NCBI GenBank assembly: GCA_024274695.1
Contig: JAJSAI010000019.1
Location: forward strand, 1-64,000
Direction of reading: 5' to 3'
Length of the DNA stretch: 64,000 nt
From: an archaeon
GTDB taxonomy: Archaea > B1Sed10-29 > JAJSAI01
Each line of letters opens with the position of its first letter. The first letter of the stretch is position 1. The translations under genes were made by a program, and so were the position numbers. Shown here piece by piece: positions 2,575-35,200 of the stretch. The notes under the pieces are model-generated. The model did not search any database. It worked only from the letters and a program-made list of their open reading frames with translations, and was not told the DNA's origin.

Positions 2575-2927
2575 TCCAGCACCCTCAGTATCGTCCTGTA
2601 CTCTTTTTCCATGCTGACCTTGTCGTACCTTCCCGGGTGGGTCAGGAGGGTCACGCTAACAGTGTACTCCCCGGGGGTCACGTTGAACTTGGGGTATATC
2701 CTGAAGCTCGCGGTCTTCTCTCCTTCGGCTGGAACATAGTCGAGCCTCTGCCTCTTTTCCCGGGAAATGCAGCTGGGATCAAGCCCGAGCCCGGGAGGTA
2801 CCCTCACGATAACCGTGGAAAGAACTTCCTCATCTCCCGGGTTCTTCACTATCACGTCAAGGTTCACAGGCTCTTTCTGGCCTATTATTATCCTTATCGG
2901 CGTGAACCTAGTCTTAACGGTCAGCAT
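2571..2927 (-). CDS. Hypothetical beta-rich (Ig-like/CARDB-like) protein
   Basis: Alternating beta-strand pattern (VIVKNPG, GEKTASF, PGEYTVSVTL); no signal peptide; SD-like GGTGA upstream. Confidence 0.65.
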   Translation of the reverse strand: MLTVKTRFTPIRIIIGQKEPVNLDVIVKNPGDEEVLSTVIVRVPPGLGLDPSCISREKRQRLDYVPAEGEKTASFRIYPKFNVTPGEYTVSVTLLTHPGRYDKVSMEKEYRTILRVLE

Positions 2928-3028
2928 CCCATTTCACCGCATCCTTTGTTAACACACTACTCACTTAAAAACAATTCCCCTGTCCCTCCCTATCACCTTT
3001 TTTAATAACCATTCCCTTATGTAGGCTC

Positions 3029-3478
3029 ATGACACGGATACCGGAGGCCGAACTGGTTAAGAAGACGGTCACGTTCAGGGTAATGAAGGTTCCTGACGAT
3101 CCCGTGATGCCCAAGGATTCCCTGCTCAGGTGGCTTTGCCTGTGCCTTGGGCTGATAAGCGAGAACGAGTCAAGGGACACTGTGGTCAGGGTGCTCGATT
3201 CTGTCCTGTCCTGGCAGGCCAAGGGCGTTGATCCTACCGCCGAAGAAATAGCAGAGGAGGTTCCTGGTGCTTCCGAGAAAACGGTAAGGTACCATCTGAA
3301 GAGAATGTGCGATGCTGGAGTGCTTGAGAAGAACGGGAAAAAGTACTCCCTGACGAGGGCCGACGATGATCCGAGACTGCTGTCCTTCCCGAAAGCGTTT
3401 TTTCTCAGGAACGCTGACGAGGCCTCTGCTCCCGCTGAAAAGGTATTCGCAAGGCTTCTTGAAAAGTACTCACGGTAA
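3029..3478 (+). CDS. Winged-helix (ArsR-like) transcriptional regulator
   Basis: TAEEIAEEV...SEKTVRYHLKRMCDAGVLEK..KKYSL wHTH pattern. Confidence 0.75.
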   Translation: MTRIPEAELVKKTVTFRVMKVPDDPVMPKDSLLRWLCLCLGLISENESRDTVVRVLDSVLSWQAKGVDPTAEEIAEEVPGASEKTVRYHLKRMCDAGVLEKNGKKYSLTRADDDPRLLSFPKAFFLRNADEASAPAEKVFARLLEKYSR

Positions 3479-3484
3479 GCGGGG

Positions 3485-4051
3485 TCACGGGTTGTAGATC
3501 CTTGCCTTGAGCAGTGTTTCTTTCAGGTCGTTCAGTACCTTCCTGGCGACGTCCTGCTTGTGCTTTAGCCCTGGTACGATGCTGTTCGGGTATGCTAGCC
3601 CTGCGTACTCTGCGTACAGGTCTTCCAGGCTCTCGTATAGGCTTCGTGCTTTCTCGTGCTCTCCTGCCGCCGCGAGTTCTAGTGCGTACCTCTTAAGTTC
3701 TCCTATAGCGTCTCCCAGCCCGAGCAGGAAGTACTTTGCTGGGACTCCTGGGTCCACTATCCTCCCTTTTTCAACCATCCCGAGGTAGACGACGAGCTCG
3801 GCGTACTCCTGGTAGGCGCTTCCCAGCACGCTGTCCCTAAGGTCAGGATACTGTTTCAGCATCTTCTCAATCTCTTTTATCCTGCGCTTTATTCTTTCAG
3901 CCTCCTCTCTCGCCTGCCCGAACTTTCTCAGCTGAACGAGCCTTATCGCCCTCGCGCACGTTGGAACGATTTCCCTGTTCGCTTTCAAGGCCCTTTCTCT
4001 TGCTTCAAACTTTTTGTCAAGCTCTCCTTCCACTTTCTTGAGTACTCTCAT
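3485..4051 (-). CDS. Translin/TRAX (archaeal C3PO-like) family protein
   Basis: RERALK..REI, AYQEYAE, FLLGLGDAIGELKR and LKHKQDVAR motifs of the translin family. Confidence 0.85.
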   Translation of the reverse strand: MRVLKKVEGELDKKFEARERALKANREIVPTCARAIRLVQLRKFGQAREEAERIKRRIKEIEKMLKQYPDLRDSVLGSAYQEYAELVVYLGMVEKGRIVDPGVPAKYFLLGLGDAIGELKRYALELAAAGEHEKARSLYESLEDLYAEYAGLAYPNSIVPGLKHKQDVARKVLNDLKETLLKARIYNP

Positions 4052-24378: not shown

Positions 24379-25494
24379 ATGCACTTCACTCTGCACAGAC
24401 TGAACATCCTTTTGTCCGGGACAGAGACGAGAAGCATTTACGTTAACGGAATGATAAGATCTCTTGCCTTCGGAATAGCAGGGGTCTTCATACCCATATT
24501 CCTGCTGGAAAACGGCCTGCCCCTGCCAGGAATAGGCCTGTTTTACGTGACCCAGTACCTGTTTTTCGCGATATTCGCCCTGCAGAACACCTTTTTCGAG
24601 GAGCTCTTGGGAGGGATAAAGAAGATGATCATCGCAGGAACAGCGTGTTCCGCGATCTTCCTGGCCACTCTGGGAAGAGTCCCTGTCTGGATGTCTGCAA
24701 TGCTCGCAGGAGCAGGGCTGGGGCTCTACTGGGTGTCAGTGAACACGGACTTTTCTCTGCACGTCCGGAAAGGGAAGGCTGGGAGCACGTTCGGGAAATG
24801 GACTTCCCTCGCCTCGGTCCCTGCCCTGTTCGCTCCCCTGCTCGGCGGCTGGCTGCTTGACGTGATAGGCTTCAGGCTCGTGCTGTTCATTTCCTCAGGA
24901 ATCCTCGCGCTGTCCCTCATTCCCTTCGTCCTGTCAGAAGACATTTTTGTGAGGCCCAGGAGGAAAATCAGAGAGGTCCTGGGAGGAGAGCTCTCGGCAG
25001 AGTTCATCCTGCAGGGAGTTGTGTTCATCGCCTTCATCCTCTGGCCGGTGTACATCTTCTCCACCGGGAAAGACCTGCTCGTGGTGGGTGGTTTGTCAGT
25101 CCTCTCCTCCCTCGCCCTCATCCTCTTCAAGTACTCTTACGGCAGGCTGGCGGACAGGCTGAGCAGGCTCGCCCTCATGAAAGCAGGGGCTCTTCTTAAC
25201 GCTGTAGTCTGGGTTCTGGCAATGCTCTCCGAGGACGTGGTGTCCCTTTCTGTGGTGTCCGTGCTGCTCGGGTTCACAGGGTCTCTTGTGGGCACGCCTT
25301 TGTTCGTCTTCTTCTCAGAGTACTCAAAAAAAGACCCTCTCGCCTGGATGTCCCTCAGAGAAGTCTCCCTGTGCCTGGGGAGGATAACAGCGGCCCTGCT
25401 GTTCTTCTGGTTCCCTTCCTTTGATTTCGCGTTCGCCCTGGCGGCCTTAGCCTCCGTGGGGCTTGCAATGGTAAAGCCAGTGCACTCTGAATAA
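24379..25494 (+). CDS. MFS transporter
   Basis: About 12 hydrophobic segments; motif A-like YGRLADRLSR; APLLGGWL. Confidence 0.85.
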   Translation: MHFTLHRLNILLSGTETRSIYVNGMIRSLAFGIAGVFIPIFLLENGLPLPGIGLFYVTQYLFFAIFALQNTFFEELLGGIKKMIIAGTACSAIFLATLGRVPVWMSAMLAGAGLGLYWVSVNTDFSLHVRKGKAGSTFGKWTSLASVPALFAPLLGGWLLDVIGFRLVLFISSGILALSLIPFVLSEDIFVRPRRKIREVLGGELSAEFILQGVVFIAFILWPVYIFSTGKDLLVVGGLSVLSSLALILFKYSYGRLADRLSRLALMKAGALLNAVVWVLAMLSEDVVSLSVVSVLLGFTGSLVGTPLFVFFSEYSKKDPLAWMSLREVSLCLGRITAALLFFWFPSFDFAFALAALASVGLAMVKPVHSE

Positions 25495-25524
25495 AATTTA
25501 AAGGAGTGTGTGATATAATTCCGC

Positions 25525-26565
25525 ATGGAGCCAATAGTTATAGTTGGTGCAGGCCCTGCTGGCCTATCCCTTCATGAGAAACTGTGCGAGTCTGGGATCA
25601 AAAGTTTGATCATAGAGCGTAAGAAAAGCGTTGGAGAATATGGCAATAGGGTAATAAATCTTGATACTTTCAAGTTATTTGGATCTCCTGAAGAAATAAT
25701 CTCTTATAAAATAGATGAAGTCGTGTTTTCTTCCCCTTCTGGTGAAAAGTTACGCGCCAAAAAAGAAAGGGGGTACGTTATTAATAAGAGGGATCTAGAA
25801 TTATGCTTGCTTGATAGGATTTCTGAGCCTAACATAGTATATGGTAAGGCAGTAATAAAATTAAATAAGAAAAAGAAAAAACTTCTTACTTCTGATGGGA
25901 CGATCTTTTCTTATTCTATACTTGTAGGATGCGATGGAGTCCATTCTACAGTACGAAGTTCTGTGACAGATGAACAGATTAAGACAATAAATTGTTACGC
26001 GGAAGAATACGATGGCCAGGAACCCACTACCGTATTCGTAGAACCTGATTTGGCAAAAGGCTTTTATGGTTGGATAATGCCCCTGTCAGATAAGAGAATT
26101 GAGATAGGTATAGGTAGTGTCAACAGAGGAGTTTCCCAAAAAGAACTTTTTCATATCTTGAAAAAAAAACATGGATTAGATAAATATTCTAGGTCACTTA
26201 AGATAACGGGAGGAACACTTCCTGTAGACTTTCTGAAAAGAGAAGTGTATTCTGATATTGTTCTGATAGGGGATGCTAGTGGAGGAGAACCCGCAATGGG
26301 GGGATCACTTCACAAGACTGTTGATGAAGTTAATCTACTTTTCAATATTCTTTCTGAGAAAAAAAATTTAGAGGAGTATGATATCTTATGGAACGGATTT
26401 TTCCTTGAAGAGTTTAAAACTCAAAGAAAACTTAGAAATGCGATTGACTCTGCTACAGAGAAAGATATTGACAAAGTGTTCAAAAAGTTACATAAAAAAA
26501 GATTACCTGATAAGGGGCTCGTTACCACTATATTTAAAGAGATTGCTCTTAATCTTGAAAAGTAA
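25525..26565 (+). CDS. Geranylgeranyl-reductase-like FAD-dependent oxidoreductase (divergent)
   Basis: IVGAGPAGL, GCDGVHS, GFYGWIMP, LIGDASG..P.MGG. Confidence 0.8.
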   Translation: MEPIVIVGAGPAGLSLHEKLCESGIKSLIIERKKSVGEYGNRVINLDTFKLFGSPEEIISYKIDEVVFSSPSGEKLRAKKERGYVINKRDLELCLLDRISEPNIVYGKAVIKLNKKKKKLLTSDGTIFSYSILVGCDGVHSTVRSSVTDEQIKTINCYAEEYDGQEPTTVFVEPDLAKGFYGWIMPLSDKRIEIGIGSVNRGVSQKELFHILKKKHGLDKYSRSLKITGGTLPVDFLKREVYSDIVLIGDASGGEPAMGGSLHKTVDEVNLLFNILSEKKNLEEYDILWNGFFLEEFKTQRKLRNAIDSATEKDIDKVFKKLHKKRLPDKGLVTTIFKEIALNLEK

Positions 26566-26600
26566 AACTTTTTAATTTCTTTTAATTCTTTTGAAGAGAT

Positions 26601-27251
26601 ATGTTGACATATCCAGAATTAGTAAAGTTAATGCTTTCTGGGAAAATGAAGCTTTCTTTCGGAGAAATACTATTCCTTGGACATCCTTTTTCTCTGATGC
26701 CGATGTACTTTTACGAAGAACTTACTAAGAGACTTATTGAAGATCCTGAAGAAAGAGAAAAGGTATATTTTGACGCATGGAAAGCGGGGTTTAAGTTTAC
26801 CTTAGATATAGTGAACAAGTACTCTCTAGAAAGCTTTGAAGATAGATACAAACTTGCGATGGACTTGGTGAGCATGTCTGGTTTTGGGGATTATAGAACG
26901 ATTGAATTCTTTCCAGGTTACGCTATTTTCAAGATAATAAACAATCCATTTCCAAAATTATTCTATCCCTCAAATCTTAAAGTTGATCACATTTTGAGAG
27001 GCATTAATGCGGGCGGCGGAACCGTTGTTCATGAAAGAATAATAAATTGTGTTGAATTGGAATGCGCTGCTGAGAACAGTAAATATTGCTTGCATGTGAA
27101 CGGGAGTCAAAAATATTTAGAAGAAAGAATAGAAAATGAAAAAATTCTGGAAGAACAACTTGGAGATATTAAAAATCTTCAAAAGAAACAAGTTTCTTAT
27201 TTGAAAAGGAATTACAAAAAAATATATAAAAAATATTCTATAGAAAAATAA
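26601..27251 (+). CDS. V4R-domain (4-vinyl reductase-like) ligand-binding protein
   Basis: GEILFLG.PF.LMP, SGFG, DHILRG...G and C-terminal CVELECAAENSKYC (E-x2-C-x7-C). Confidence 0.7.
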   Translation: MLTYPELVKLMLSGKMKLSFGEILFLGHPFSLMPMYFYEELTKRLIEDPEEREKVYFDAWKAGFKFTLDIVNKYSLESFEDRYKLAMDLVSMSGFGDYRTIEFFPGYAIFKIINNPFPKLFYPSNLKVDHILRGINAGGGTVVHERIINCVELECAAENSKYCLHVNGSQKYLEERIENEKILEEQLGDIKNLQKKQVSYLKRNYKKIYKKYSIEK

Positions 27252-28083
27252 CAAACAATATTAAGAATAATAAAATTATTAAAATTCTTTCATAAGCATA
27301 TACTTTAGTATAATTTTTTTGCCATGTTATTATTAGAGCTAAAATAATAAACAATAAACTAACAAGGGATATCACATGTTGATTAATGATTAATGTAAAT
27401 AATCCTAATAAAAATCCTGAAGAAAGTATCCATTTTCGAACTATTCTCATACCCTTTTTTGTACCATATTTTGTTGCCAAAGTCTTTTTTCCGTATACTG
27501 CATCGTATTTAGCATCTTTGAAGTCTTTAGTTGAGATGAGCGCGGAAATAAATAGCGTTAACAAAAAGAGGTTAACGATGAACTGAAAGCTAATCTGCTC
27601 AGTTAAAATTATTAGTCCCAATACTCCTGTCACAAAAAATGAGCCGTAAGCTAAGGTGATTGGCCCTACAAAAGGAATTCTCGCAAGCCATAGTGAGTAA
27701 GATATCCCTATTATAAGTAGTGAAAGAGCAAGCATTATACCCCAAAATCCTCCCATAACCCCAACAACTAATCCAGAACTCCAGAGTATATACATCACTC
27801 TTTTAGCTTCGTGTATGCTGATTCTTCCAGAGGTAAGAGGTCTGTAGGGCATGCTTTTTTTATCTATCTTGTAATCAATTATATCATTTAGGATTGCTCC
27901 TGCAGAATACATGGAAAAGATGATTGCTGCAGAAATAGCAATTTTTGACCAATCAAATTCCTGAGCAAATGCTGCAGCATAGAACAATGCCAAGAAATAA
28001 ATAAGGCTATTCCAAGGGCGCATAAGGTCTATGAAAGAAAGGATCTTATTTTTGGAGAGTTTTTCGGAAAAGAATTCTTCCAT
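27238..28083 (-). CDS. UbiA-family prenyltransferase (DGGGP synthase-like)
   Basis: LMRP.N, NDIIDYKID....RPL.SG and KDFKDAKYD..YGKKTLA aspartate motifs; many TM helices. Confidence 0.9.
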   Translation of the reverse strand: MEEFFSEKLSKNKILSFIDLMRPWNSLIYFLALFYAAAFAQEFDWSKIAISAAIIFSMYSAGAILNDIIDYKIDKKSMPYRPLTSGRISIHEAKRVMYILWSSGLVVGVMGGFWGIMLALSLLIIGISYSLWLARIPFVGPITLAYGSFFVTGVLGLIILTEQISFQFIVNLFLLTLFISALISTKDFKDAKYDAVYGKKTLATKYGTKKGMRIVRKWILSSGFLLGLFTLIINQHVISLVSLLFIILALIITWQKNYTKVYAYERILIILLFLILFVIFL

Positions 28084-28087
28084 AATT

Positions 28088-28918
28088 TCACTTTAGTAAC
28101 AGGCTTCTTCCTTTTTCTGTGTTCACAACAATCCCTTTACCTCTTATTATGTCAAATGAGAAAAATGCTTTTTCATGCTGAGTTAGTCTCATCTTTCTGA
28201 TCTGTAAGTTTCGGGAGGACTCTCCTGCAATTCCAGTAAAGTATAGCAGAATTACTCCATCTACCATAAACTCACTGAATGAGTCTCTACTAAGAGACTT
28301 AGAGTCTTCTAGCAATTCTGACGTGATCAGAACACTTGCTTTGGTATCTCTCAATGTTTTGAAGAGTCTCATGAGGATAAATTTGTTTATTAGTTTGTCG
28401 TTTAATGGAAGGGGTATTACAGTATCCTCTACAACGGTATAAGGTGTAGAAATAAAATGAGAAAAAATAGCGTTAAGGTCTCTAATCCCTTTTTGTGAAA
28501 GTATTGTTTCATATTTTTTTGGCAGGACCATAGAATAACTGTCTAACAGGGTTGTGACAGAATCTATCACAACTCTTTTTGGGCCAAACTTTTTACATTC
28601 CTCTTTAATTTTGTTGATCATACAACCCTCTTCAGGATTGAGAGAAATAACACGAAGTTTCTTGGATTTTTCATCTTTTTTCAAGTCTATATTAAACTGT
28701 TTGGCTTGTTGAATTATCATTTCTTCGGATTCTTCAGTGGTAAAGAAAAGAGTTTTCTCATTATTTTCCGCCCCTGCATGTGCATAATGTATGGCAAATG
28801 TTGATTTTCCAGTTCCTGCCCCTCCAGATATGAGAATAATGCTTCCTTGAGGAAACCCTCCTTGTACAAGTTTGTCAAAGCCTTCGACACCTGTTTTTAT
28901 TCTTTTCATAAGCACCAC
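28088..28918 (-). CDS. Single-domain KaiC/GvpD/RAD55-family ATPase
   Basis: RIKTGVEGFDKLVQGGFP, GGAGTGKS, TEES, VVIDS, EFMVDGVI, IRKMRLTQH. Confidence 0.9.
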   Translation of the reverse strand: MVLMKRIKTGVEGFDKLVQGGFPQGSIILISGGAGTGKSTFAIHYAHAGAENNEKTLFFTTEESEEMIIQQAKQFNIDLKKDEKSKKLRVISLNPEEGCMINKIKEECKKFGPKRVVIDSVTTLLDSYSMVLPKKYETILSQKGIRDLNAIFSHFISTPYTVVEDTVIPLPLNDKLINKFILMRLFKTLRDTKASVLITSELLEDSKSLSRDSFSEFMVDGVILLYFTGIAGESSRNLQIRKMRLTQHEKAFFSFDIIRGKGIVVNTEKGRSLLLK

Positions 28919-28966
28919 CGCTTATTAACCTCAAAAGATAAATTTATTTAAAACTTTTTTGATTGC

Positions 28967-30274
28967 TCATATGACGATCTCTTCCCCGGGCTCGGGAATG
29001 CTGTTCTGTATTCCCTTCTTTTCCAGGGTCCTGGAAAAGCTCTTCTGTTTCTCTTTCTCCCCGTGAACCAGGAACACCTGCTCCCGCGGATGGTTCTCTT
29101 TTATCCAGTTCAGCAGATCGTTCCTGTCAGCGTGGGCTGAGAGCCTGAGCTGGTGTACCCTGAGCTTTATTTCCACTTCCTCGTCCCCGATGATCACGTT
29201 CCTCGCTCCCTCTGATATCTGTCTTCCGAGAGTGCCTTCGGCCTGGTACCCTACGAGTATGACCGAGTTGTCCTTGTCTCCCGCCAGTTTTTTCAGGTAG
29301 TATACGCTAGGCCCTCCTGTCAGCATCCCGCTCGTGCTGACTATTATCGCCCTCTCTTTCTCCAGCACGTCCCTCCTGTCCTTGGTTCTCGGGGTCTTCC
29401 AGAACCTTGACTTGAATGGATCGTCGTCCGCGAGCAGGATCCTTCTTGGTATTTCCTCTTTTAGCCAGAGGACGTTGTGCCTGTATATCCTGCTCGCCTT
29501 TTTCACCATCCCGTCCGCGTAACCGTGCTCGTTGGAAAGGAATCCTGACCTGACGTAGTTGTCTATGATCATCATGACCTCCTGTCCTCTTCCCACCCCG
29601 AAAACGGGGATGAGCACTTTCCCAGGAGTGCTCCTGATTATTTCGGCCAGTTCCCTTGAAACTGTTTTCAGGCTCGGCAGGAGATCGTCAGGACCAGAAT
29701 AGGTTGACTCTGTTATAAGATAGTCTGTCCTGGGGATCTTTTTCTCCGCCCCGTACAAGAGGTTGGTTTCCCTCGTGTTCATGTCCCCAGTGTAGTACAG
29801 GCTCTTCCGACCCTTTTTCACCCTGAACCCTGCGGCCCCGAGTATGTGTCCTGCGTTGTAAGCGGTGACCTCGAACCCTGCCACCCTGACAGGCTTCTTG
29901 TACTCCAGGAAAGAGAACCTGGACAGGATCTTTTTGACATCGTTCCTGCTGAAGTTAATGTCCTTTTTCGCCACGCCCAGCCTGTAGTAGTCTGCCAGCA
30001 GGACCTGGACGAGGTCAAAGGTCGGCTTGGTGCTGTACACTTTCCCCCTGAACCCGAGCCTTTCCAGGTCAGGCAGGAACCCTGAGTGGTCAAGGTGGGC
30101 GTGGGTCACGAAAACGGCCTTAAGCGACCTCGCAATCCTCTCGTCCAGCAGGGGATACTCTTTAGGGTCTCCTAGTTTGACCCCGCAGTCCAAGAGAATC
30201 CTTTTCCCCTTGTCCTCCAGCATTACCGCCGATCTTCCGACTTCTCCGCAGGCTCCCAGAAAACAGACCTTCAT
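28967..30274 (-). CDS. MBL-fold beta-CASP ribonuclease (short CPSF-like paralog, no KH domains)
   Basis: GACGEVGRS, THAHLDHSG, AGHILG, YTGD, ESTY, GYQAEGT, SAHAD, VHGE. Confidence 0.9.
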   Translation of the reverse strand: MKVCFLGACGEVGRSAVMLEDKGKRILLDCGVKLGDPKEYPLLDERIARSLKAVFVTHAHLDHSGFLPDLERLGFRGKVYSTKPTFDLVQVLLADYYRLGVAKKDINFSRNDVKKILSRFSFLEYKKPVRVAGFEVTAYNAGHILGAAGFRVKKGRKSLYYTGDMNTRETNLLYGAEKKIPRTDYLITESTYSGPDDLLPSLKTVSRELAEIIRSTPGKVLIPVFGVGRGQEVMMIIDNYVRSGFLSNEHGYADGMVKKASRIYRHNVLWLKEEIPRRILLADDDPFKSRFWKTPRTKDRRDVLEKERAIIVSTSGMLTGGPSVYYLKKLAGDKDNSVILVGYQAEGTLGRQISEGARNVIIGDEEVEIKLRVHQLRLSAHADRNDLLNWIKENHPREQVFLVHGEKEKQKSFSRTLEKKGIQNSIPEPGEEIVI

Positions 30275-30330
30275 CAGAACTTAAGTAGGGGGCCAGTGTT
30301 TTTAAACTCTCCAGGCTTATTTAGCCTTTA

Positions 30331-31716
30331 ATGGATCCGTTTGTAGTACTCGGGCTTGCCGCGCTGGCGGCCTTGGGAGCGTTCGTGGCCGCGATAGTTT
30401 ACAAGGCGAGGAAGACCTCAGGGCCTACTGTTAAGGAGATAGAGTCCTTGTACGCCGAGTTCGACAGGCTGATAAAAAGAAAGGCGAAGTACCTGTCAAT
30501 GCTCGAGGTTCTTGATGACGCGAAGAAGTACGGGAGGATCTCCACGTCCCAGTACGCCGAGCAAGCGGGCAGGATAAAAAAGAAGGTTCAAGAGACAGAC
30601 AAGAAAATTGATGAAGTGATCAGCAGGCTGGCGCTACCATACTACAAGAAGATACTGAAGCAAGAGACTGCTGTTGAAGGAAAGAAACTGAACTATCTGC
30701 TCGTGCTGCAGGAGGACAAGAAAAAACTGCAGCAGAAAGTGCTTGAACTAGAAAAGACCCTTGACGCCCTCAGGCGGAAGCTCAAGATAACAGAAGAAGC
30801 TAGGGACGAGCTTGAAGAAGAGGTTAGGTCCCTGGAGGAAAAGCACAAGAACAGCATGCTCGAGATGGAGTCCAGGCTTGATGCGGCAAGCAAGAAGATA
30901 GCTGCACTGCAGAACGAGCTTGAGGCCCTGCGCAAGGAAAAGGAAGAGATTGAAAGGAAACTGGTTGAAGTGTCGGAAAAAGAGAAGGAGTACAAGAAGA
31001 GAGCGTGGGCCGCTGAAAAACAGCTTGAGGCAAGGGGGGCTAAAGAGGAGGAAGTTAGCAGGGTTGTTGAAAAGTACAGCGCGGAGGAAGAGGAGCTGAA
31101 GAAGAGTCTTGAGAAGGCCAAGAAGAGGATGGAGGAGTACTATCACAAGATCCTGTTGTTGCAGACCATAATAGACAGGTACGCTGACAAGATAGAAACA
31201 GAAGAGGCCAGGACCATTCAGCAGGTGAAGGAGAGCGTGCAGCCGAAGAACAAGAAAGTGCTTGAAGTGTGCGAGATAATAACGTCAGAAATCCCCGAGT
31301 ACGATCCCAAGAGAGATCTTTTGAAAGCCTGCCAGCTCGCGTACGAGAGGGTTTCGGAAAGAATAGCGTCCGTGAAGGGCCCGGGTATAACGTTCTGGAT
31401 GACAATAGACGAGATCCTTGACAAGAGGATCGCGGACTACGAGGACAAGGCGATCCTCTTGTGCTCTGTCCTGAGGGCCTTAGGGGCCGACGCGAGCGTT
31501 CTCATACTCCAGATGTCGGACGGGGCCAACTTTCCGGTGGTAGAACTCAGGCACGGGGAAAAAGTTTACTGGCTTGACCCCAACCACCCGCACGAGTTCA
31601 ACAAGTACTCTGCAGGTTCCCGGGAAGAGGTAATGAAAGAGTTCTCGGCAGAAGGAGCAAAGCCCGTGAGCGTGTTGTACGAGTTCAACGATCAGGAGTA
31701 CAAGCAGAAGGAGTGA
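30331..31716 (+). CDS. Membrane-anchored long coiled-coil protein with C-terminal inactive transglutaminase-like domain
   Basis: N-terminal TM, long heptad region, then FW...E......ADYEDKAILLCSVLRALG and WLDP. Confidence 0.7.
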   Translation: MDPFVVLGLAALAALGAFVAAIVYKARKTSGPTVKEIESLYAEFDRLIKRKAKYLSMLEVLDDAKKYGRISTSQYAEQAGRIKKKVQETDKKIDEVISRLALPYYKKILKQETAVEGKKLNYLLVLQEDKKKLQQKVLELEKTLDALRRKLKITEEARDELEEEVRSLEEKHKNSMLEMESRLDAASKKIAALQNELEALRKEKEEIERKLVEVSEKEKEYKKRAWAAEKQLEARGAKEEEVSRVVEKYSAEEEELKKSLEKAKKRMEEYYHKILLLQTIIDRYADKIETEEARTIQQVKESVQPKNKKVLEVCEIITSEIPEYDPKRDLLKACQLAYERVSERIASVKGPGITFWMTIDEILDKRIADYEDKAILLCSVLRALGADASVLILQMSDGANFPVVELRHGEKVYWLDPNHPHEFNKYSAGSREEVMKEFSAEGAKPVSVLYEFNDQEYKQKE

Positions 31717-31722
31717 CCTCTG

Positions 31723-32406
31723 TTGCTGCAGGTGCTGCTCGCCACCCTGGCCGACAGTGTCATTGCACTTGTAGGAGTAGCAGCCCTCAAGGCCAAGAAT
31801 CTTGAAAAAACATCCTCTCTTCTGGCTGCTTTTGCCGCAGGCACCCTGCTCGTCGGAGGCCTTGCCCACCTGTTCGCAGAATCTCTTGATGGGATAGGCG
31901 CGGACGCCGCAGTGCTCTTCTTTTTGATAGGGTTCTCCTTCTTCCTGTTGTTAGAGTTCTTCCTGAAATGGCACAAGTGCGGGTGCAAGGCAGAGCCCTT
32001 CACTTACATGATACTCTTGGCCGACGGGGTGCACAACTTTTTTGACGGCGTTATAATCGGGGCCAGCTTTCTGGTGAACCCCTTGTTCGGCTGGATCACC
32101 ACCGGGCTCATAATACTGCACGAGGTGCCCCAGGAACTGGGAGACTTTGGGATCCTTGTCCAAGGAGGGCTCGGGCCGGCCAAGGCCCTGGCATACAATC
32201 TCGCTTCCCAGCTCTCGTGCGTTCTCGGAGGGGTCCTGGGATGGTTTGCTGTTGTTGGGGTGGTCCCGCATGCCCTTGCGTTCTCTGCAGGCGGGTTCGT
32301 GTACATAAGCGCGGCTGACCTCGTGCCCAGGATGAGGGACAATGCAGCTGTGATCGCCTTCTTTTCTGGCCTGATCCTGTTAGAAGCGCTCAAGATAGTT
32401 TTATAA
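31723..32406 (+). CDS. ZIP-family metal transporter
   Basis: ADGVHNFFDG, ILHEVPQELGDF, AGGFVYISAADLVP. Confidence 0.92.
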   Translation: MLQVLLATLADSVIALVGVAALKAKNLEKTSSLLAAFAAGTLLVGGLAHLFAESLDGIGADAAVLFFLIGFSFFLLLEFFLKWHKCGCKAEPFTYMILLADGVHNFFDGVIIGASFLVNPLFGWITTGLIILHEVPQELGDFGILVQGGLGPAKALAYNLASQLSCVLGGVLGWFAVVGVVPHALAFSAGGFVYISAADLVPRMRDNAAVIAFFSGLILLEALKIVL

Positions 32407-32427
32407 ATTAATAAAATTATAAAATTT

Positions 32428-32835
32428 GTGATGGATGTTCTCGCCAATTTTGAGGTCTTGTTCAAAGCAAGGGGCCTCTCAGCGGTCCACGGCAGAGTGT
32501 TCGGCACCCTGCTCTTGTCAGGAGCGCAGATGACGCAAAAGCAGATAGCCAGAGAATCAGGGTATTCCGTCCCAGCGGTGAGCATTGCCCTTGACGAGCT
32601 CGTCAAGCTTGGGCTGGTAAAAAAGAGGAAAAAACAGAGGACCTTCTACTACTCTGCCGACGCGGACCTCCCTAAAATAATGCACGACTTCCTTAAAACA
32701 ATAAAAAAGGACTACGTGGAGCCCTTCCTCCGGGAGATAAAAGAGTACCCGAGGACGGAGCCCGTGAAAAAGTTTGAGAAGAGCATGAAAAACCTTGACA
32801 ATTACCTGTCAAGATTACTGGAGGTGCGAGTATGA
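32428..32835 (+). CDS. GbsR/MarR-like HTH regulator
   Basis: GRVFGTLLLS...TQKQIARESGYSVPAVSIALDEL..GLV. Confidence 0.8.
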   Translation: MMDVLANFEVLFKARGLSAVHGRVFGTLLLSGAQMTQKQIARESGYSVPAVSIALDELVKLGLVKKRKKQRTFYYSADADLPKIMHDFLKTIKKDYVEPFLREIKEYPRTEPVKKFEKSMKNLDNYLSRLLEVRV

Positions 32836-33017
32836 CCAAAGGAGTTTTTATTGACAAGACCAAGTGCATGTACTGCGGAGGGTGCACAGCAGTATGTCCT
32901 GTCAACGCCCTCGAACTTAAGGAGACGTACATAGAGTGGGATCCTGAAAAGTGCATATACTGCGGGGCGTGCGAGAGGTTCTGCCCCGCTGGAGCAATAA
33001 AGGTGGTGAGAGAATGA
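32832..33017 (+). CDS. 2[4Fe-4S] ferredoxin
   Basis: Two CxxCxxCxxxCP motifs. Confidence 0.93.
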   Translation: MTKGVFIDKTKCMYCGGCTAVCPVNALELKETYIEWDPEKCIYCGACERFCPAGAIKVVRE

Positions 33018-34222
33018 GACAATGGCTTCAGGAAGAGTATGATGTCATAGTCGTCGGGGCCGGGCCCGCTGGAAGCACTGCCGCGAGAGAGTGCGCTAAA
33101 CGGGGCCTGAAAACCCTGGTCCTTGAAAAAAGACAGGAGGTAGGAGTCCCGAAAAGGTGCGGGGAAGGACTAGGAGAAGGCTGGTGCAGGATAGCAGGAA
33201 TAACCCCTGACCCGAAGTGGGCGAGGTACGAAATGCACGGGGCAGTGCTCTGGTCCCCCTCCGGCAAAAAAGTGGTGATACCCACGCCCACGAAAGGCTG
33301 GATAATAGAAAGAAGAGTCTTCGACAAGTGGCTGGCCGAGAAAGCGGTCATGGCAGGAGCGAGGATGATAACCAAGGCAAGAGTCATAGGAGTCATAAAA
33401 GAAGAAGACACAGTAAAGGGTGTGATCGTGGAAACCCCTGACGGGGACTTCGAAGTCATGGCAAAGATAGTGATAGCCGCTGACGGGGTTGACAGCAAGA
33501 CCGCAAAGTATGCTGGGCTTAACACAGTAAACCCCGCCACCGAAATAGACTCAGGGTACCAGTACGAGATGGTCGGTCTCAAGATCCCAGAGCCCACGGA
33601 CATGATACACCTGTACTTCGGGTGGGACGTTGCCCCCAGGGGATACGTCTGGATATTCCCGAAAGGACCTGACCACGCGAACGTGGGAATAGGGATAGGC
33701 GGGCACATTGACAAGGGAACCGCAAAAGAATACCTTGACAGGTTCATAGAGTCCCATCCCGAAATCTTTGAGAACGCTGGGATAGTAGAAGTGAACGCGG
33801 GAGGAATCCCTGTAGGCGCTCCCCTGAAAAAACCGTACGCGAACGGCCTGCTCGTGATAGGAGACGCCGCGCACATGGTCAACCCCATACACGGCGGAGG
33901 AATAGGCACTGGCATGGAAGCAGGAATACTCGCGGCAGAGATAGCTGAAAAAGCAGTGAGGTCCGGCAATGTTTCAGAAGACGTCCTGAAAGAGTTCGCG
34001 GAAAAGTGGTACGAGAAGAGAGGAAACCAGTTGCTCCAGGTGCTCAAGGTCAGGAAGTTCTTCGAAGACCTCACGGACCAGGACATGGAAAAACTAGCGG
34101 ACATACTGGACGACAAACAGCTCCTGCTGGACTTCGCGGACGGCAGGAGGACAGCCGCGTTCCTGAAGTTCCTGGCCAAAGCGCCCAGGATCGCGCTGAA
34201 GGCGGCAAAGCACCTCAAGTGA
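33014..34222 (+). CDS. Digeranylgeranylglycerophospholipid reductase (archaeal GGR)
   Basis: VGAGPAGS, RCGEG, AADG, PRGYVWIFP, GDAA..VNP.HGGGI. ATG at 33014 overlaps the ferredoxin stop. Confidence 0.92.
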   Translation: MRQWLQEEYDVIVVGAGPAGSTAARECAKRGLKTLVLEKRQEVGVPKRCGEGLGEGWCRIAGITPDPKWARYEMHGAVLWSPSGKKVVIPTPTKGWIIERRVFDKWLAEKAVMAGARMITKARVIGVIKEEDTVKGVIVETPDGDFEVMAKIVIAADGVDSKTAKYAGLNTVNPATEIDSGYQYEMVGLKIPEPTDMIHLYFGWDVAPRGYVWIFPKGPDHANVGIGIGGHIDKGTAKEYLDRFIESHPEIFENAGIVEVNAGGIPVGAPLKKPYANGLLVIGDAAHMVNPIHGGGIGTGMEAGILAAEIAEKAVRSGNVSEDVLKEFAEKWYEKRGNQLLQVLKVRKFFEDLTDQDMEKLADILDDKQLLLDFADGRRTAAFLKFLAKAPRIALKAAKHLK

Positions 34223-34270
34223 AACCCAAAAACCCTCCTTTTATAATCTTCTCCTGAGTCTATTACCAGG

Positions 34271-35200
34271 ATGAAGACAAGACCTGTCCTAACGATAGCA
34301 CTGATCCTTCTCACGCTGGGCACCTACTTCGCCTTCAGTAACGCGTACCTGTACATCCGCCAAGACAGGCTGCTTGCTCTGGCGTTCTCCTGGCACAACG
34401 TCTTCCCTGGAATAATCACGTACATGTTCGCTCACATAGGACTAAAGCACCTGTTCGGCAACATGCTCCTCCTCCTTCTGGTAGGAGCAATCTGCGAGGA
34501 AAAACTCAGGAAAAAAGACTATCTTGCGATATACTTTGCCTCGGGGGCGGCGGGAGCTGTGCTGTTCTCGGCAATAAACCCTAACGTCGCGCTGGCAGGA
34601 GCCAGCGCATGCATCGCGGGCCTTATGGTTCCTGCAATGATAATAAACACGCGGCGGTTCGTGCTGGGAATGATCCTGGTTGCGGTTTTCTCCACGACAG
34701 TCATGATGCCGGTCCTGACAGTATTCTCAGAATCCTTGCACCAGAAGACGGTTAAGGAATACACTGTCCTGAAACAGGAGTACGAGAACGTAACAAAAGA
34801 AAAGCAAGAGCTTCAGACAATAATACTGGAGCTGAACAAGACCGAAGAAAAGGTTAGGGAAAAGCTTGAGAAGGGAGAGATAACGGAAAGAGAGTATATG
34901 ATTATAATCCAGAACGTGAGCTTGCAAAGGAACGCCACGCTGGCCAAGCTCGCTGAAAAAGAACAGGAAGAGAAAAAGGTCAGTGAAGGGGTGAACAAGA
35001 CCCTTGAGCTCAAGGAAAACCTTGAGCAGGGGATAGAAAGAGAAAAAAGGATGGTCACCAGCGTGCTGGTGCACGCTCTCGGGTCGGTGGTTGGTGCAAC
35101 ATACCTGCTGTTGTTCAGGAGGGACATCCTGTACGACGCTGTCTTCGAATGGAAGAACGCTGCATGGAGGTTGAAAAAACGCTTAGCACGATCTTCTTGA
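34271..35200 (+). CDS. Rhomboid intramembrane protease with large coiled-coil insertion
   Basis: FAH....HLFGNM, catalytic GASA, and the catalytic His in VHALG placed after a ~110-aa charged insert. Confidence 0.82.
   Translation: MKTRPVLTIALILLTLGTYFAFSNAYLYIRQDRLLALAFSWHNVFPGIITYMFAHIGLKHLFGNMLLLLLVGAICEEKLRKKDYLAIYFASGAAGAVLFSAINPNVALAGASACIAGLMVPAMIINTRRFVLGMILVAVFSTTVMMPVLTVFSESLHQKTVKEYTVLKQEYENVTKEKQELQTIILELNKTEEKVREKLEKGEITEREYMIIIQNVSLQRNATLAKLAEKEQEEKKVSEGVNKTLELKENLEQGIEREKRMVTSVLVHALGSVVGATYLLLFRRDILYDAVFEWKNAAWRLKKRLARSS

Follow-up and report, generated by a model that had tools for sequence, protein, structure and literature searches.

Why should an archaeon that already has its own ether-lipid genes carry a sharply bounded, adenine- and thymine-rich (AT-rich) block in which two isoprenoid-type enzymes are encoded together with a putative ligand-binding protein and a KaiC-like ATPase? 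The block lies at positions 25495 to 28966 of the window analysed here, a stretch of 64,000 nucleotides (nt) of contig JAJSAI010000019.1 (positions 1 to 64,000, forward strand; assembly GCA_024274695.1) from an archaeon of the lineage B1Sed10-29, and it holds genes for a flavoprotein of the geranylgeranyl reductase (GGR) family, a protein of V4R type, a prenyltransferase of the UbiA superfamily and a single-domain KaiC-like ATPase. We give about an even chance to the answer that this island was acquired laterally and represents a conserved four-part module of DPANN type, which would provide an accessory, ligand-controlled route to prenyl lipids. The evolutionary part of that answer, namely that an inserted copy of foreign composition represents a conserved module whose four parts reshuffle, is well supported. 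For their membrane lipids, DPANN archaea are generally assumed to rely on hosts, and neither a regulator nor an accessory factor is known to us for ether-lipid synthesis in archaea.

Insertion of an AT-rich island

The host assembly (G000) comprises 825 kb in 32 contigs (91% complete; guanine-plus-cytosine (GC) content 0.514) and falls in the size class of DPANN archaea. Island GC is 0.343 compared to 0.523 and 0.529 in the 5-kb flanks, the step at either end being completed within 100 bp, and the next-lowest non-overlapping segment of 3.47 kb in the 64 kb has a GC of 0.506. Relative to 530 open reading frames (ORFs) of 200 amino acids (aa) or more from the genome, GC at third codon positions (GC3) of the island genes is 0.295-0.308, against a genome mean of 0.623 (standard deviation 0.095; z -3.3 to -3.4); all four genes are within the 14 lowest, with 9-13 of the 530 ORFs lying below the individual island genes. 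Ile, Lys, Phe and Leu are overrepresented in the island proteins, and Ala, Arg, Pro and Val underrepresented. The genes form two co-directional pairs that converge with an overlap of 14 nt between their 3' ends, the KaiC-like gene ending 4 nt ahead of the UbiA gene, and the remaining ORFs of the island gave no family match. A first-pass annotation, made from the letters of this DNA, had described a sharply bounded low-GC block with exactly four genes in two convergent pairs, and the ORFs, the sliding GC profile and GC3 bear this description out.

An empty site is present in G006, a genome of the same genus (95% complete), in which the gene for the transporter on the left of the island directly follows the stop codon of the beta-CASP gene on its right, with none of the four genes between them. 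The right-hand gene order is kept there (canonical GGR 89% identical, two unnamed genes 84% and 70%, beta-CASP 80%), and a profile of the V4R-like protein found no match in that genome. At E<=1e-25 the same profile reaches two of the 31 genomes of the phylum (the host and G010), and five of the 31 at E<=1e-5. The canonical GGR and the flanks of the island are syntenic in six relatives, and both joins are at intergenic points within a 93-kb contig. Deviant composition, an empty site and a patchy distribution, all expected of a horizontally acquired island, are thus found together, while signatures of mobility are not: family scans of the four island genes revealed no integrase or transposase, and the viral contigs searched yielded no relatives of the V4R-like or GGR-like families. 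We regard the insertion, and the foreign composition of the inserted DNA, as well supported.

The island is one of 13 segments of the assembly with a GC below 0.40 in 1-kb windows. The twelve further segments include C21:16.1-24.3 kb, C26:20.3-30.8 kb and C13:7.9-13.9 kb (L052-L058), and the low-GC genes in the seven other stretches that were scanned are mostly glycosyltransferase, sugar-modifying and radical-SAM genes, together with sugar dehydrogenase or epimerase, aminotransferase, carbamoyltransferase and DNA methylase genes. On C13, a class-I aminoacyl-tRNA synthetase with a Leu-type editing-domain match is encoded by two adjoining ORFs (L054:1546-2769 and 2773-3972, minus strand; 399 and 407 aa; GC 0.41-0.43), i.e., by a split or interrupted gene. 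A large GC shift was also observed inside the genus: L040 (G006:C1:100000-112351) has a GC of 0.40-0.48, compared to 0.52-0.55 in 28967-35200 of the window, with proteins that are 61-89% identical.

Recurrence and phylogeny of the gene set

We scanned species-representative genomes for the V4R-like family and identified the neighbouring genes by tblastn and Pfam. Thirteen loci were recovered, from Micrarchaeota, Iainarchaeota, Aenigmatarchaeota, 'Marsarchaeota' and unclassified archaea. A KaiC-like gene is located directly upstream of the V4R-like gene on the same strand at 11 of them, with a spacing of 12 nt or less or an overlap at most loci; the two exceptions are a contig of 1.5 kb and L009, where the KaiC gene lies nearby on the opposite strand. 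UbiA is encoded within 3 kb of the V4R-like gene at ten loci, a GGR-type or related flavin adenine dinucleotide (FAD) flavoprotein at seven, and a polyprenyl synthase nearby at four, and five of the 13 (L003, L006, L007, L012 and L015) contain all four families. A further copy, in genome G001 (L021), has KaiC, V4R-like and UbiA genes together. When the search was started from the reductase, 27 metagenome loci were found (13 at 31-37% identity), of which the eight with usable flanks were annotated. Four of these hold all four families (L059, L063, L066 and L071), three end at contig borders and hold two or three families, consistent with the set, and in the remaining one, L061, the KaiC gene is 4.4 kb away, beside an unnamed protein of 379 aa. 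L071 shares the KaiC-then-UbiA order of the island. The first-pass annotation had staked its case on the four genes occurring together elsewhere, and on both searches they do.

The GC of the module is below that of its flanks at 11 of 12 loci, by 0.10-0.13 in L003, L010 and L011 and by 0.04-0.07 in four others, and the difference is about zero in hosts with a GC of 0.29-0.35; the largest contrast (0.18) is that of the island. Low-GC modules also occur in independent assemblies, including a closed chromosome of 833 kb and a contig of 522 kb. This pattern fits repeated transfer from AT-rich lineages, the alternative being a constraint of composition on the module itself.

Some observations on individual loci may be added. 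NUDIX hydrolase genes adjoin the module in L003 (9052-9552), L009 (5680-6577) and L063 (5608-6024), directly upstream of UbiA in the last; these enzymes are possible prenyl-diphosphate phosphatases. The 379-aa protein of L061 (11367-12506, minus strand), encoded directly downstream of the KaiC-like gene, has a size like that of tandem V4R-like proteins (375-440 aa, with two matched stretches). The pair of carbamoyltransferase and radical-SAM genes known from the low-GC segments of the host also borders the module in L004. The V4R-like protein of L013, the 1.5-kb contig, which was binned as 'Methanosarcinales', is almost identical to that of L010, a metagenome-assembled genome of Micrarchaeota (branches 0.02 and 0), and probably reflects a binning error or the same organism.

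In a UbiA tree of 18 sequences, nine of the ten V4R-linked enzymes and that of L021, whose linkage to V4R was found after the tree, form one clade (support 95/98), whereas the other UbiA of the host (contig C12) groups with L018 (99/96) apart from them. Grouping of the island enzyme with housekeeping enzymes, which would have told against the earlier interpretation, is thus not what the tree gives. The island UbiA sits on a long branch (2.06), and L006, the V4R-linked UbiA outside the clade, is also long-branched. The island KaiC clusters (97/91) with the AT-rich module KaiCs of Iainarchaeum type and not with the 11 other KaiC paralogues of the genome that were tested; the island UbiA and KaiC thus both belong to module-specific clades. 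In the V4R-like tree the island protein is placed, weakly (81/77), with L004/L005 and not with G010, the other carrier in the phylum. Sub-clades are broadly common to the three trees (L003, L007, L010 and L021; L012 and L015), and the parts of the island give mixed phylogenetic signals across them. The best identities (32-46%) are too low for a donor to be named.

The four proteins and their surroundings

The prenyltransferase matches PF01040 with 109.6 bits (cut-off 34.2). Its best NCBIfam model is PRK12884 (94.8 bits, cut-off 269), followed by DGGGPS (73.4 bits, cut-off 296), and it fails the equivalogs for digeranylgeranylglyceryl phosphate (DGGGP) synthase, NF009521 and NF009522 (73.4 vs 296 and 50.3 vs 353 bits). 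The closest solved relative is the DGGGP synthase of M. jannaschii (6m31; E 1.2e-10), and the Asp-rich motifs NDIIDYKID (NDxxDxxxD, residues 66-74) and KDFKDAKYD align with the motifs of that structure. The KaiC-like protein matches PF06745 with 172.4 bits (cut-off 26.6) and has a Walker A motif (GAGTGKS), a Walker B motif (VVIDS), the conserved Glu and R-K-x-R; G32, G35, G37, K38, E54, E62, D119, R241, K242 and R244 are invariant over 11 module KaiCs. Circadian KaiC has a tandem double KaiC domain of about 500 aa and acts with KaiA/KaiB partners. The island protein, with a single domain and 276 aa, is not of that kind (circ_KaiC 92.4 bits, cut-off 546; KaiA/KaiB were not searched). The PADLOC defence models gave only weak matches at P-loop level for the KaiC-like protein (best 6.4e-7, mad8), and none for the UbiA and V4R-like proteins.

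The flavoprotein scores 103.7 bits for TIGR02032, below the cut-off of 158.8, and belongs to a rare subfamily: a search of 5.8 billion proteins at E<=1e-10 returned only six clusters of homologues. When a profile was built from this subfamily, it matched the GGR structures 3oz2 (E 3.7e-13) and 3atq (1.1e-11) over the full length (positions 1-334), and aromatic hydroxylases at residues 3-36 only; the predicted model (predicted local distance difference test, pLDDT, 72.6) has 3oz2 as its top fold match (template modelling score, TM, 0.76). A GxGxxG motif, the stretch FYGWIMP (Y-G-W-I-M-P, of the GGR type Y-x-W-x-x-P) and GDASGG are present. In this protein and its five closest homologues, G-x-Y-G-N-R-V-I-N replaces the P-C-G-G stretch, and the usual Cys, which we take to lie near the flavin, is gone.

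For the 216-aa protein, Pfam gave no match even at E<=10, and a profile of its family gave nothing at E<=10 against the sequences of the PDB. Weak matches to Pfam V4R (PF02830) were obtained for three of nine family members (best E 0.0064). In 1.84 billion sequences the profile recovers 17 representatives at E<=1e-30, a number that rises to 174 at E<=1e-10 and to 453 at E<=1e-3, and among 34 hits that were sampled 22 carry Pfam V4R, two of them XylR_N as well. In Foldseek the predicted model (pLDDT 81.7) matches the sensor domains of MopR, PoxR and DmpR in their phenol-bound form (E 1.7e-8 to 8e-7, TM 0.61-0.72, about 195 columns), the V4R protein MJ1460 (E 1.2e-4) and, more weakly, Bet3/TRAPP subunits, one of them with covalently bound palmitate (6aq3). 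Judged from this predicted fold and from transitive homology, the protein is of the V4R or XylR_N+V4R type. H144, E145, E152, C155 and C163 are invariant in the family and include a cluster E-x2-C-x7-C, presumably corresponding to part of the zinc site of MopR. Prediction of a complex of the KaiC-like and V4R-like proteins (score 0.00, mark 0.32) was used neither for nor against an interaction.

The coordinates of all features are given in Table 1. The TTTAAA upstream of the GGR-like gene is TATA-box-like under the archaeal promoter consensus that we assume, against which the elements upstream of the KaiC-like gene were also read; the GGR-like mRNA is possibly leaderless. Next to the short beta-CASP gene, 30331-31716 (plus strand) encodes a coiled-coil (SMC-like) protein of 461 aa with a CEP76-peptidase-like C-terminal domain, and the two genes are also neighbours in six relatives.

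Table 1. Position of the island, its genes and adjoining features in the window.
Feature	Position	Strand	Basis or remark
AT-rich inserted block	25495..28966		3,472 bp, GC 0.343; between stop codons of two convergent host genes
GGR-family flavoprotein, rare subfamily, 346 aa	25525..26565	+	TIGR02032, profile and fold matches
Stand-alone XylR_N+V4R-type ligand-binding protein (putative), 216 aa	26601..27251	+	Fold and transitive profile matches
UbiA-superfamily membrane prenyltransferase, 281 aa, divergent DGGGP-synthase-like paralogue	27238..28083	-	PF01040
Single-domain KaiC-like RecA-superfamily ATPase, 276 aa	28088..28918	-	PF06745
Upstream region of GGR-like gene, 30 nt	25495..25524	+	TTTAAA at 25497-25502, 23-28 nt before ATG
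Upstream region of KaiC-like gene, 48 nt	28919..28966	-	TTTTAAAT 28-35 nt and GAGGTT 9-14 nt before GTG start
Left boundary gene, MFS transporter, host GC	24379..25494	+	PF07690 67.8 bits
Right boundary gene, short beta-CASP/aCPSF-like ribonuclease, host GC	28967..30274	-	Family matches; G006 orthologue 80% identical
Canonical geranylgeranyl reductase of host, outside island	32951..34222	+	TIGR02032 246.6 bits (above cut-off), GGR_cat

Native lipid pathway and other KaiC-like genes of the host

The host has a complete ether-lipid pathway of its own, separate from the island. At normal GC, a G1PDH-like gene and GGGPS adjoin on C2, two polyprenyl synthases are encoded on C19 and CarS on C14, a third GGR-family gene, besides the canonical one and that of the island, is present on C26, and C12 carries a DGGGPS-like UbiA (PRK12884 227 bits; 6m31 E 6e-24). 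The C12 gene (G000:C12:8076-8747; L001:1384-2232, minus strand) is interrupted in frame by a TAG at codon 150 of 284, where the intact orthologue of G006, 71% identical over its full length, has Ser. Recoding of TAG was considered and rejected, as TAG terminates 110 of 650 long ORFs and is an ordinary stop codon; its presence in this gene may have arisen by recent nonsense mutation, or reflect a variant or an error. With these genes placed, the reading of the window made before our analysis holds in several respects: the four gene identities stand (that of V4R by fold and transitive homology), a canonical GGR is present near 33 kb, and the cassette is separate from the housekeeping lipid genes (G1PDH, GGGPS, CarS, the synthases, GGR and a second UbiA are all elsewhere). 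Its general remark that KaiC-like genes often stand beside V4R genes is true of this genome too, in an operon on C23.

A KaiC-like gene (in the host G000:C12:8844-9512) is located directly upstream of the C12-type UbiA in all five genomes of the phylum that were examined (G000, G006, G009, G010 and G012; L086-L089), and its product is better conserved (62-89%) than the UbiA itself (39-70%). Beside the equivalent UbiA in the three genomes of other phyla that were checked, no KaiC-like gene was found. The order KaiC-then-UbiA therefore occurs twice in the host, in the native locus and in the island, suggesting a tie between the ATPase and the prenyltransferase as such.

KaiC domains were matched in 17 open frames of the 825-kb genome (16 above the Pfam cut-off), five of them in the first 4 kb of C23. 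The C23 operon (C23:2305-6196, L094) has normal GC and encodes two KaiC proteins, a V4R/MetOD1-like protein of 258 aa, an unnamed protein of 239 aa, Usp and a PLD-like protein (PLDc_2); it is a second KaiC/V4R set beside a possible lipid head-group enzyme.

A possible function and its alternatives

If the island provides an accessory prenyl-lipid route, its UbiA enzyme would catalyse a reaction like that of DGGGP synthase, in which a lipid-type acceptor receives a polyprenyl chain, probably geranylgeranyl, and the GGR-family flavoprotein would reduce double bonds of the transferred chain, perhaps with altered chemistry. The V4R-type protein might bind a hydrophobic substrate, product or intermediate and gate the KaiC-like ATPase, or hand the ligand over with its help, and the net effect would be a ligand-controlled, accessory supply of a variant prenyl lipid. 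The gating step is modelled on XylR, DmpR and MopR, the nearest analogy among systems that are known to work, in which the sensor fold gates an ATPase domain; here gating would act in trans and on an ATPase of RecA type.

Several points weigh against this reading. Its mechanism is inferred from family kinship and linkage, and both enzymes score far under the curated equivalog cut-offs. The Cys of P-C-G-G is kept in six of seven other aligned flavoproteins, so that the GGR-like protein lacking it may differ in kind from ordinary reductases and its chemistry is possibly altered. Across the loci the flavoprotein is heterogeneous (at least three sequence types) and missing in six of 13. The top structural relatives of the V4R-like protein bind phenols, not isoprenoids. 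In the island the KaiC-like and V4R-like genes are on opposite strands, departing from the conserved KaiC-then-V4R order, and G010:C3 holds the KaiC-V4R pair only, suggesting that the pair may serve other partners too. As regards the insertion, no mobility gene accounts for it, no tRNA or Rfam family was found in or beside the island, no convincing direct or inverted flanking repeats or target duplication were detected (low-complexity repeats only), and the junctions were read from the assembled sequence.

The product of the enzymes could instead be a prenylated molecule dedicated to signalling (between cells, on host contact or of membrane state), with V4R and KaiC as its cognate receptor, which is the role that the first-pass annotation had in mind. 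Such a system would explain why a sensor or ATPase accompanies an enzyme in either gene pair, why the module, in the manner typical of variable signalling loci, is mobile, reshuffled and patchy in occurrence, and why it is separate from the native lipid pathway. However, family scans of the island found neither an exporter nor a secretion signal, and no receptor kinase or DNA-binding output either, both enzymes are nearest to enzymes of bulk lipid synthesis, the polyprenyl synthases beside four of the 13 loci point to lipid supply, and a KaiC gene ahead of the housekeeping UbiA fits control of an enzyme better than signalling. We therefore regard a signal as unlikely; of the earlier interpretation the gene identities, the foreign composition, the separateness and the co-occurrence stand, and the signal role of the product finds no specific support. 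A little less doubtful, and still on the unlikely side, is a machine for substrate handling, in which V4R would carry a greasy substrate and the KaiC-like ATPase would power its loading or extraction at the membrane for UbiA. BchJ has been proposed as a substrate carrier and Bet3 holds an acyl chain, and the fold search does reach the Bet3/TRAPP subunits, including the palmitate-bound one; the tight spacing of KaiC and V4R genes at most loci, the 4 nt between KaiC and UbiA in the island and the conserved pairing of KaiC with the housekeeping UbiA would also suit such a machine. Neither of these two proteins has a membrane anchor, though, the top fold matches of the V4R-like protein are ligand sensors, and we know of no single-domain ATPase of RecA/KaiC type that extracts lipids. 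A prenylated aromatic (quinone-like or phenolic) product, made by an aromatic prenyltransferase and a flavoprotein acting as ring hydroxylase or reductase and recognized by V4R as a phenolic sensor, seems very improbable to us. Many UbiA enzymes prenylate aromatics, the structures closest to the V4R-like protein are those of phenol sensors in complex with their phenols, and the flavoprotein shares the PHBH-type fold (TM 0.57-0.65) and has weak hydroxylase matches; yet its profile meets hydroxylases only in the dinucleotide-binding N-terminus, compared to 334 residues for GGRs, and the UbiA scores highest for models of DGGGPS type, not for 4-hydroxybenzoate or 1,4-dihydroxy-2-naphthoate prenyltransferases.

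Two further explanations concern the history of the locus. The island UbiA, which is intact and has both Asp motifs, might be taking over the housekeeping DGGGP synthase reaction from the native C12 gene, which is interrupted by an ordinary stop codon where its congener is intact. The rest of the native gene is undecayed, however, so that the stop could reflect an error in sequencing or a variant carried by a minority, and other module-bearing genomes retain both types of UbiA; we consider a replacement in progress distinctly improbable. That the island is an artefact of chimeric assembly, or of a contaminating fragment joined to this contig, might be suspected from an assembly of metagenome type in 32 contigs and from the extreme step in composition. 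It is extremely improbable in view of joins that are precisely intergenic within a 93-kb contig, flanks syntenic with six relatives, comparable low-GC modules in independent assemblies (the 833-kb chromosome and the 522-kb contig) and a dozen other low-GC islands in the same genome.

The conserved association of a KaiC/V4R pair with a dedicated prenyltransferase and reductase offers concrete, clonable candidates for control of lipid synthesis or for substrate handling, and the KaiC-like gene fixed ahead of the housekeeping prenyltransferase in this phylum bears on the same question of control. The four proteins are small, and work in vitro is possible without culturing the organism. The module, which behaves like a transferable unit in that a congener has an empty site and in that it is AT-rich where hosts are GC-richer, also suggests that membrane or surface lipid chemistry may be exchangeable among symbionts. 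It is conceivable, though we think it decidedly doubtful, that the four genes are a self-contained, exchangeable cassette to make, tailor and recognise a lipid, which moves between DPANN phyla and serves strain-specific surface or host-contact recognition and not bulk lipid; by analogy, swapping such a cassette in and out would then resemble the pherotype loci of quorum-sensing bacteria.

Comparison with known systems

In the photosynthesis gene clusters of purple bacteria, bchJ, bchG and bchP encode a V4R protein, a bacteriochlorophyll synthase of UbiA type and a reductase of GGR type, which act on one prenylated product. The same three families are present in the island, and its proteins match ChlG/BchG and BchP/ChlP models secondarily. 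However, the island adds a KaiC-like ATPase, its best matches are ether-lipid and not chlorophyll enzymes, and no tetrapyrrole context, which was not searched for, turned up at the locus.

XylR, DmpR, MopR and PoxR combine an XylR_N + V4R sensor with the AAA+ ATPase that it gates, and the whole 216-aa protein superposes on their sensor domain over about 195 columns, with a TM of 0.66-0.72. As in these regulators, the protein with the sensor fold is encoded together with an ATPase, and the E-x2-C-x7-C cluster is kept. In contrast to them, the V4R-like protein of the island stands alone and the ATPase is separate and of RecA/KaiC type; the island has no sigma-54 or DNA-binding output, and its context is that of isoprenoid enzymes instead of aromatic catabolism.

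Single-domain KaiC-like ATPases of archaea have been proposed as hubs of signal transduction (Makarova, Galperin and Koonin 2017, mBio, cited in PMC5847659). The island KaiC resembles them in its single domain, intact Walker motifs, many genomic paralogues and V4R adjacency (seen in the native C23 operon), and differs in being part of a mobile enzyme cassette and in having a paralogue fixed ahead of the housekeeping UbiA. In the literature searched, no published description of the KaiC-V4R-UbiA-GGR gene set was found, although the 2017 paper on KaiC hubs and its supplements may mention V4R neighbours, and a link of a KaiC-like gene to the housekeeping UbiA was likewise not found in the papers searched.

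A further comparison is with the last steps of archaeol core synthesis, catalysed by DGGGPS (6m31) and GGR (Ta0516 of T. acidophilum, 3oz2; S. acidocaldarius, 3atq), which belong to the same two enzyme superfamilies and are the best solved relatives of the island pair. The Asp-rich and Y-x-W-x-x-P motifs are present in the island enzymes too. The island pair differs in scoring below the equivalog cut-offs, with its UbiA in a separate clade and its reductase devoid of the P-C-G-G Cys, and it is mobile, AT-rich and tied to KaiC and V4R, whereas the host keeps canonical copies of its own.

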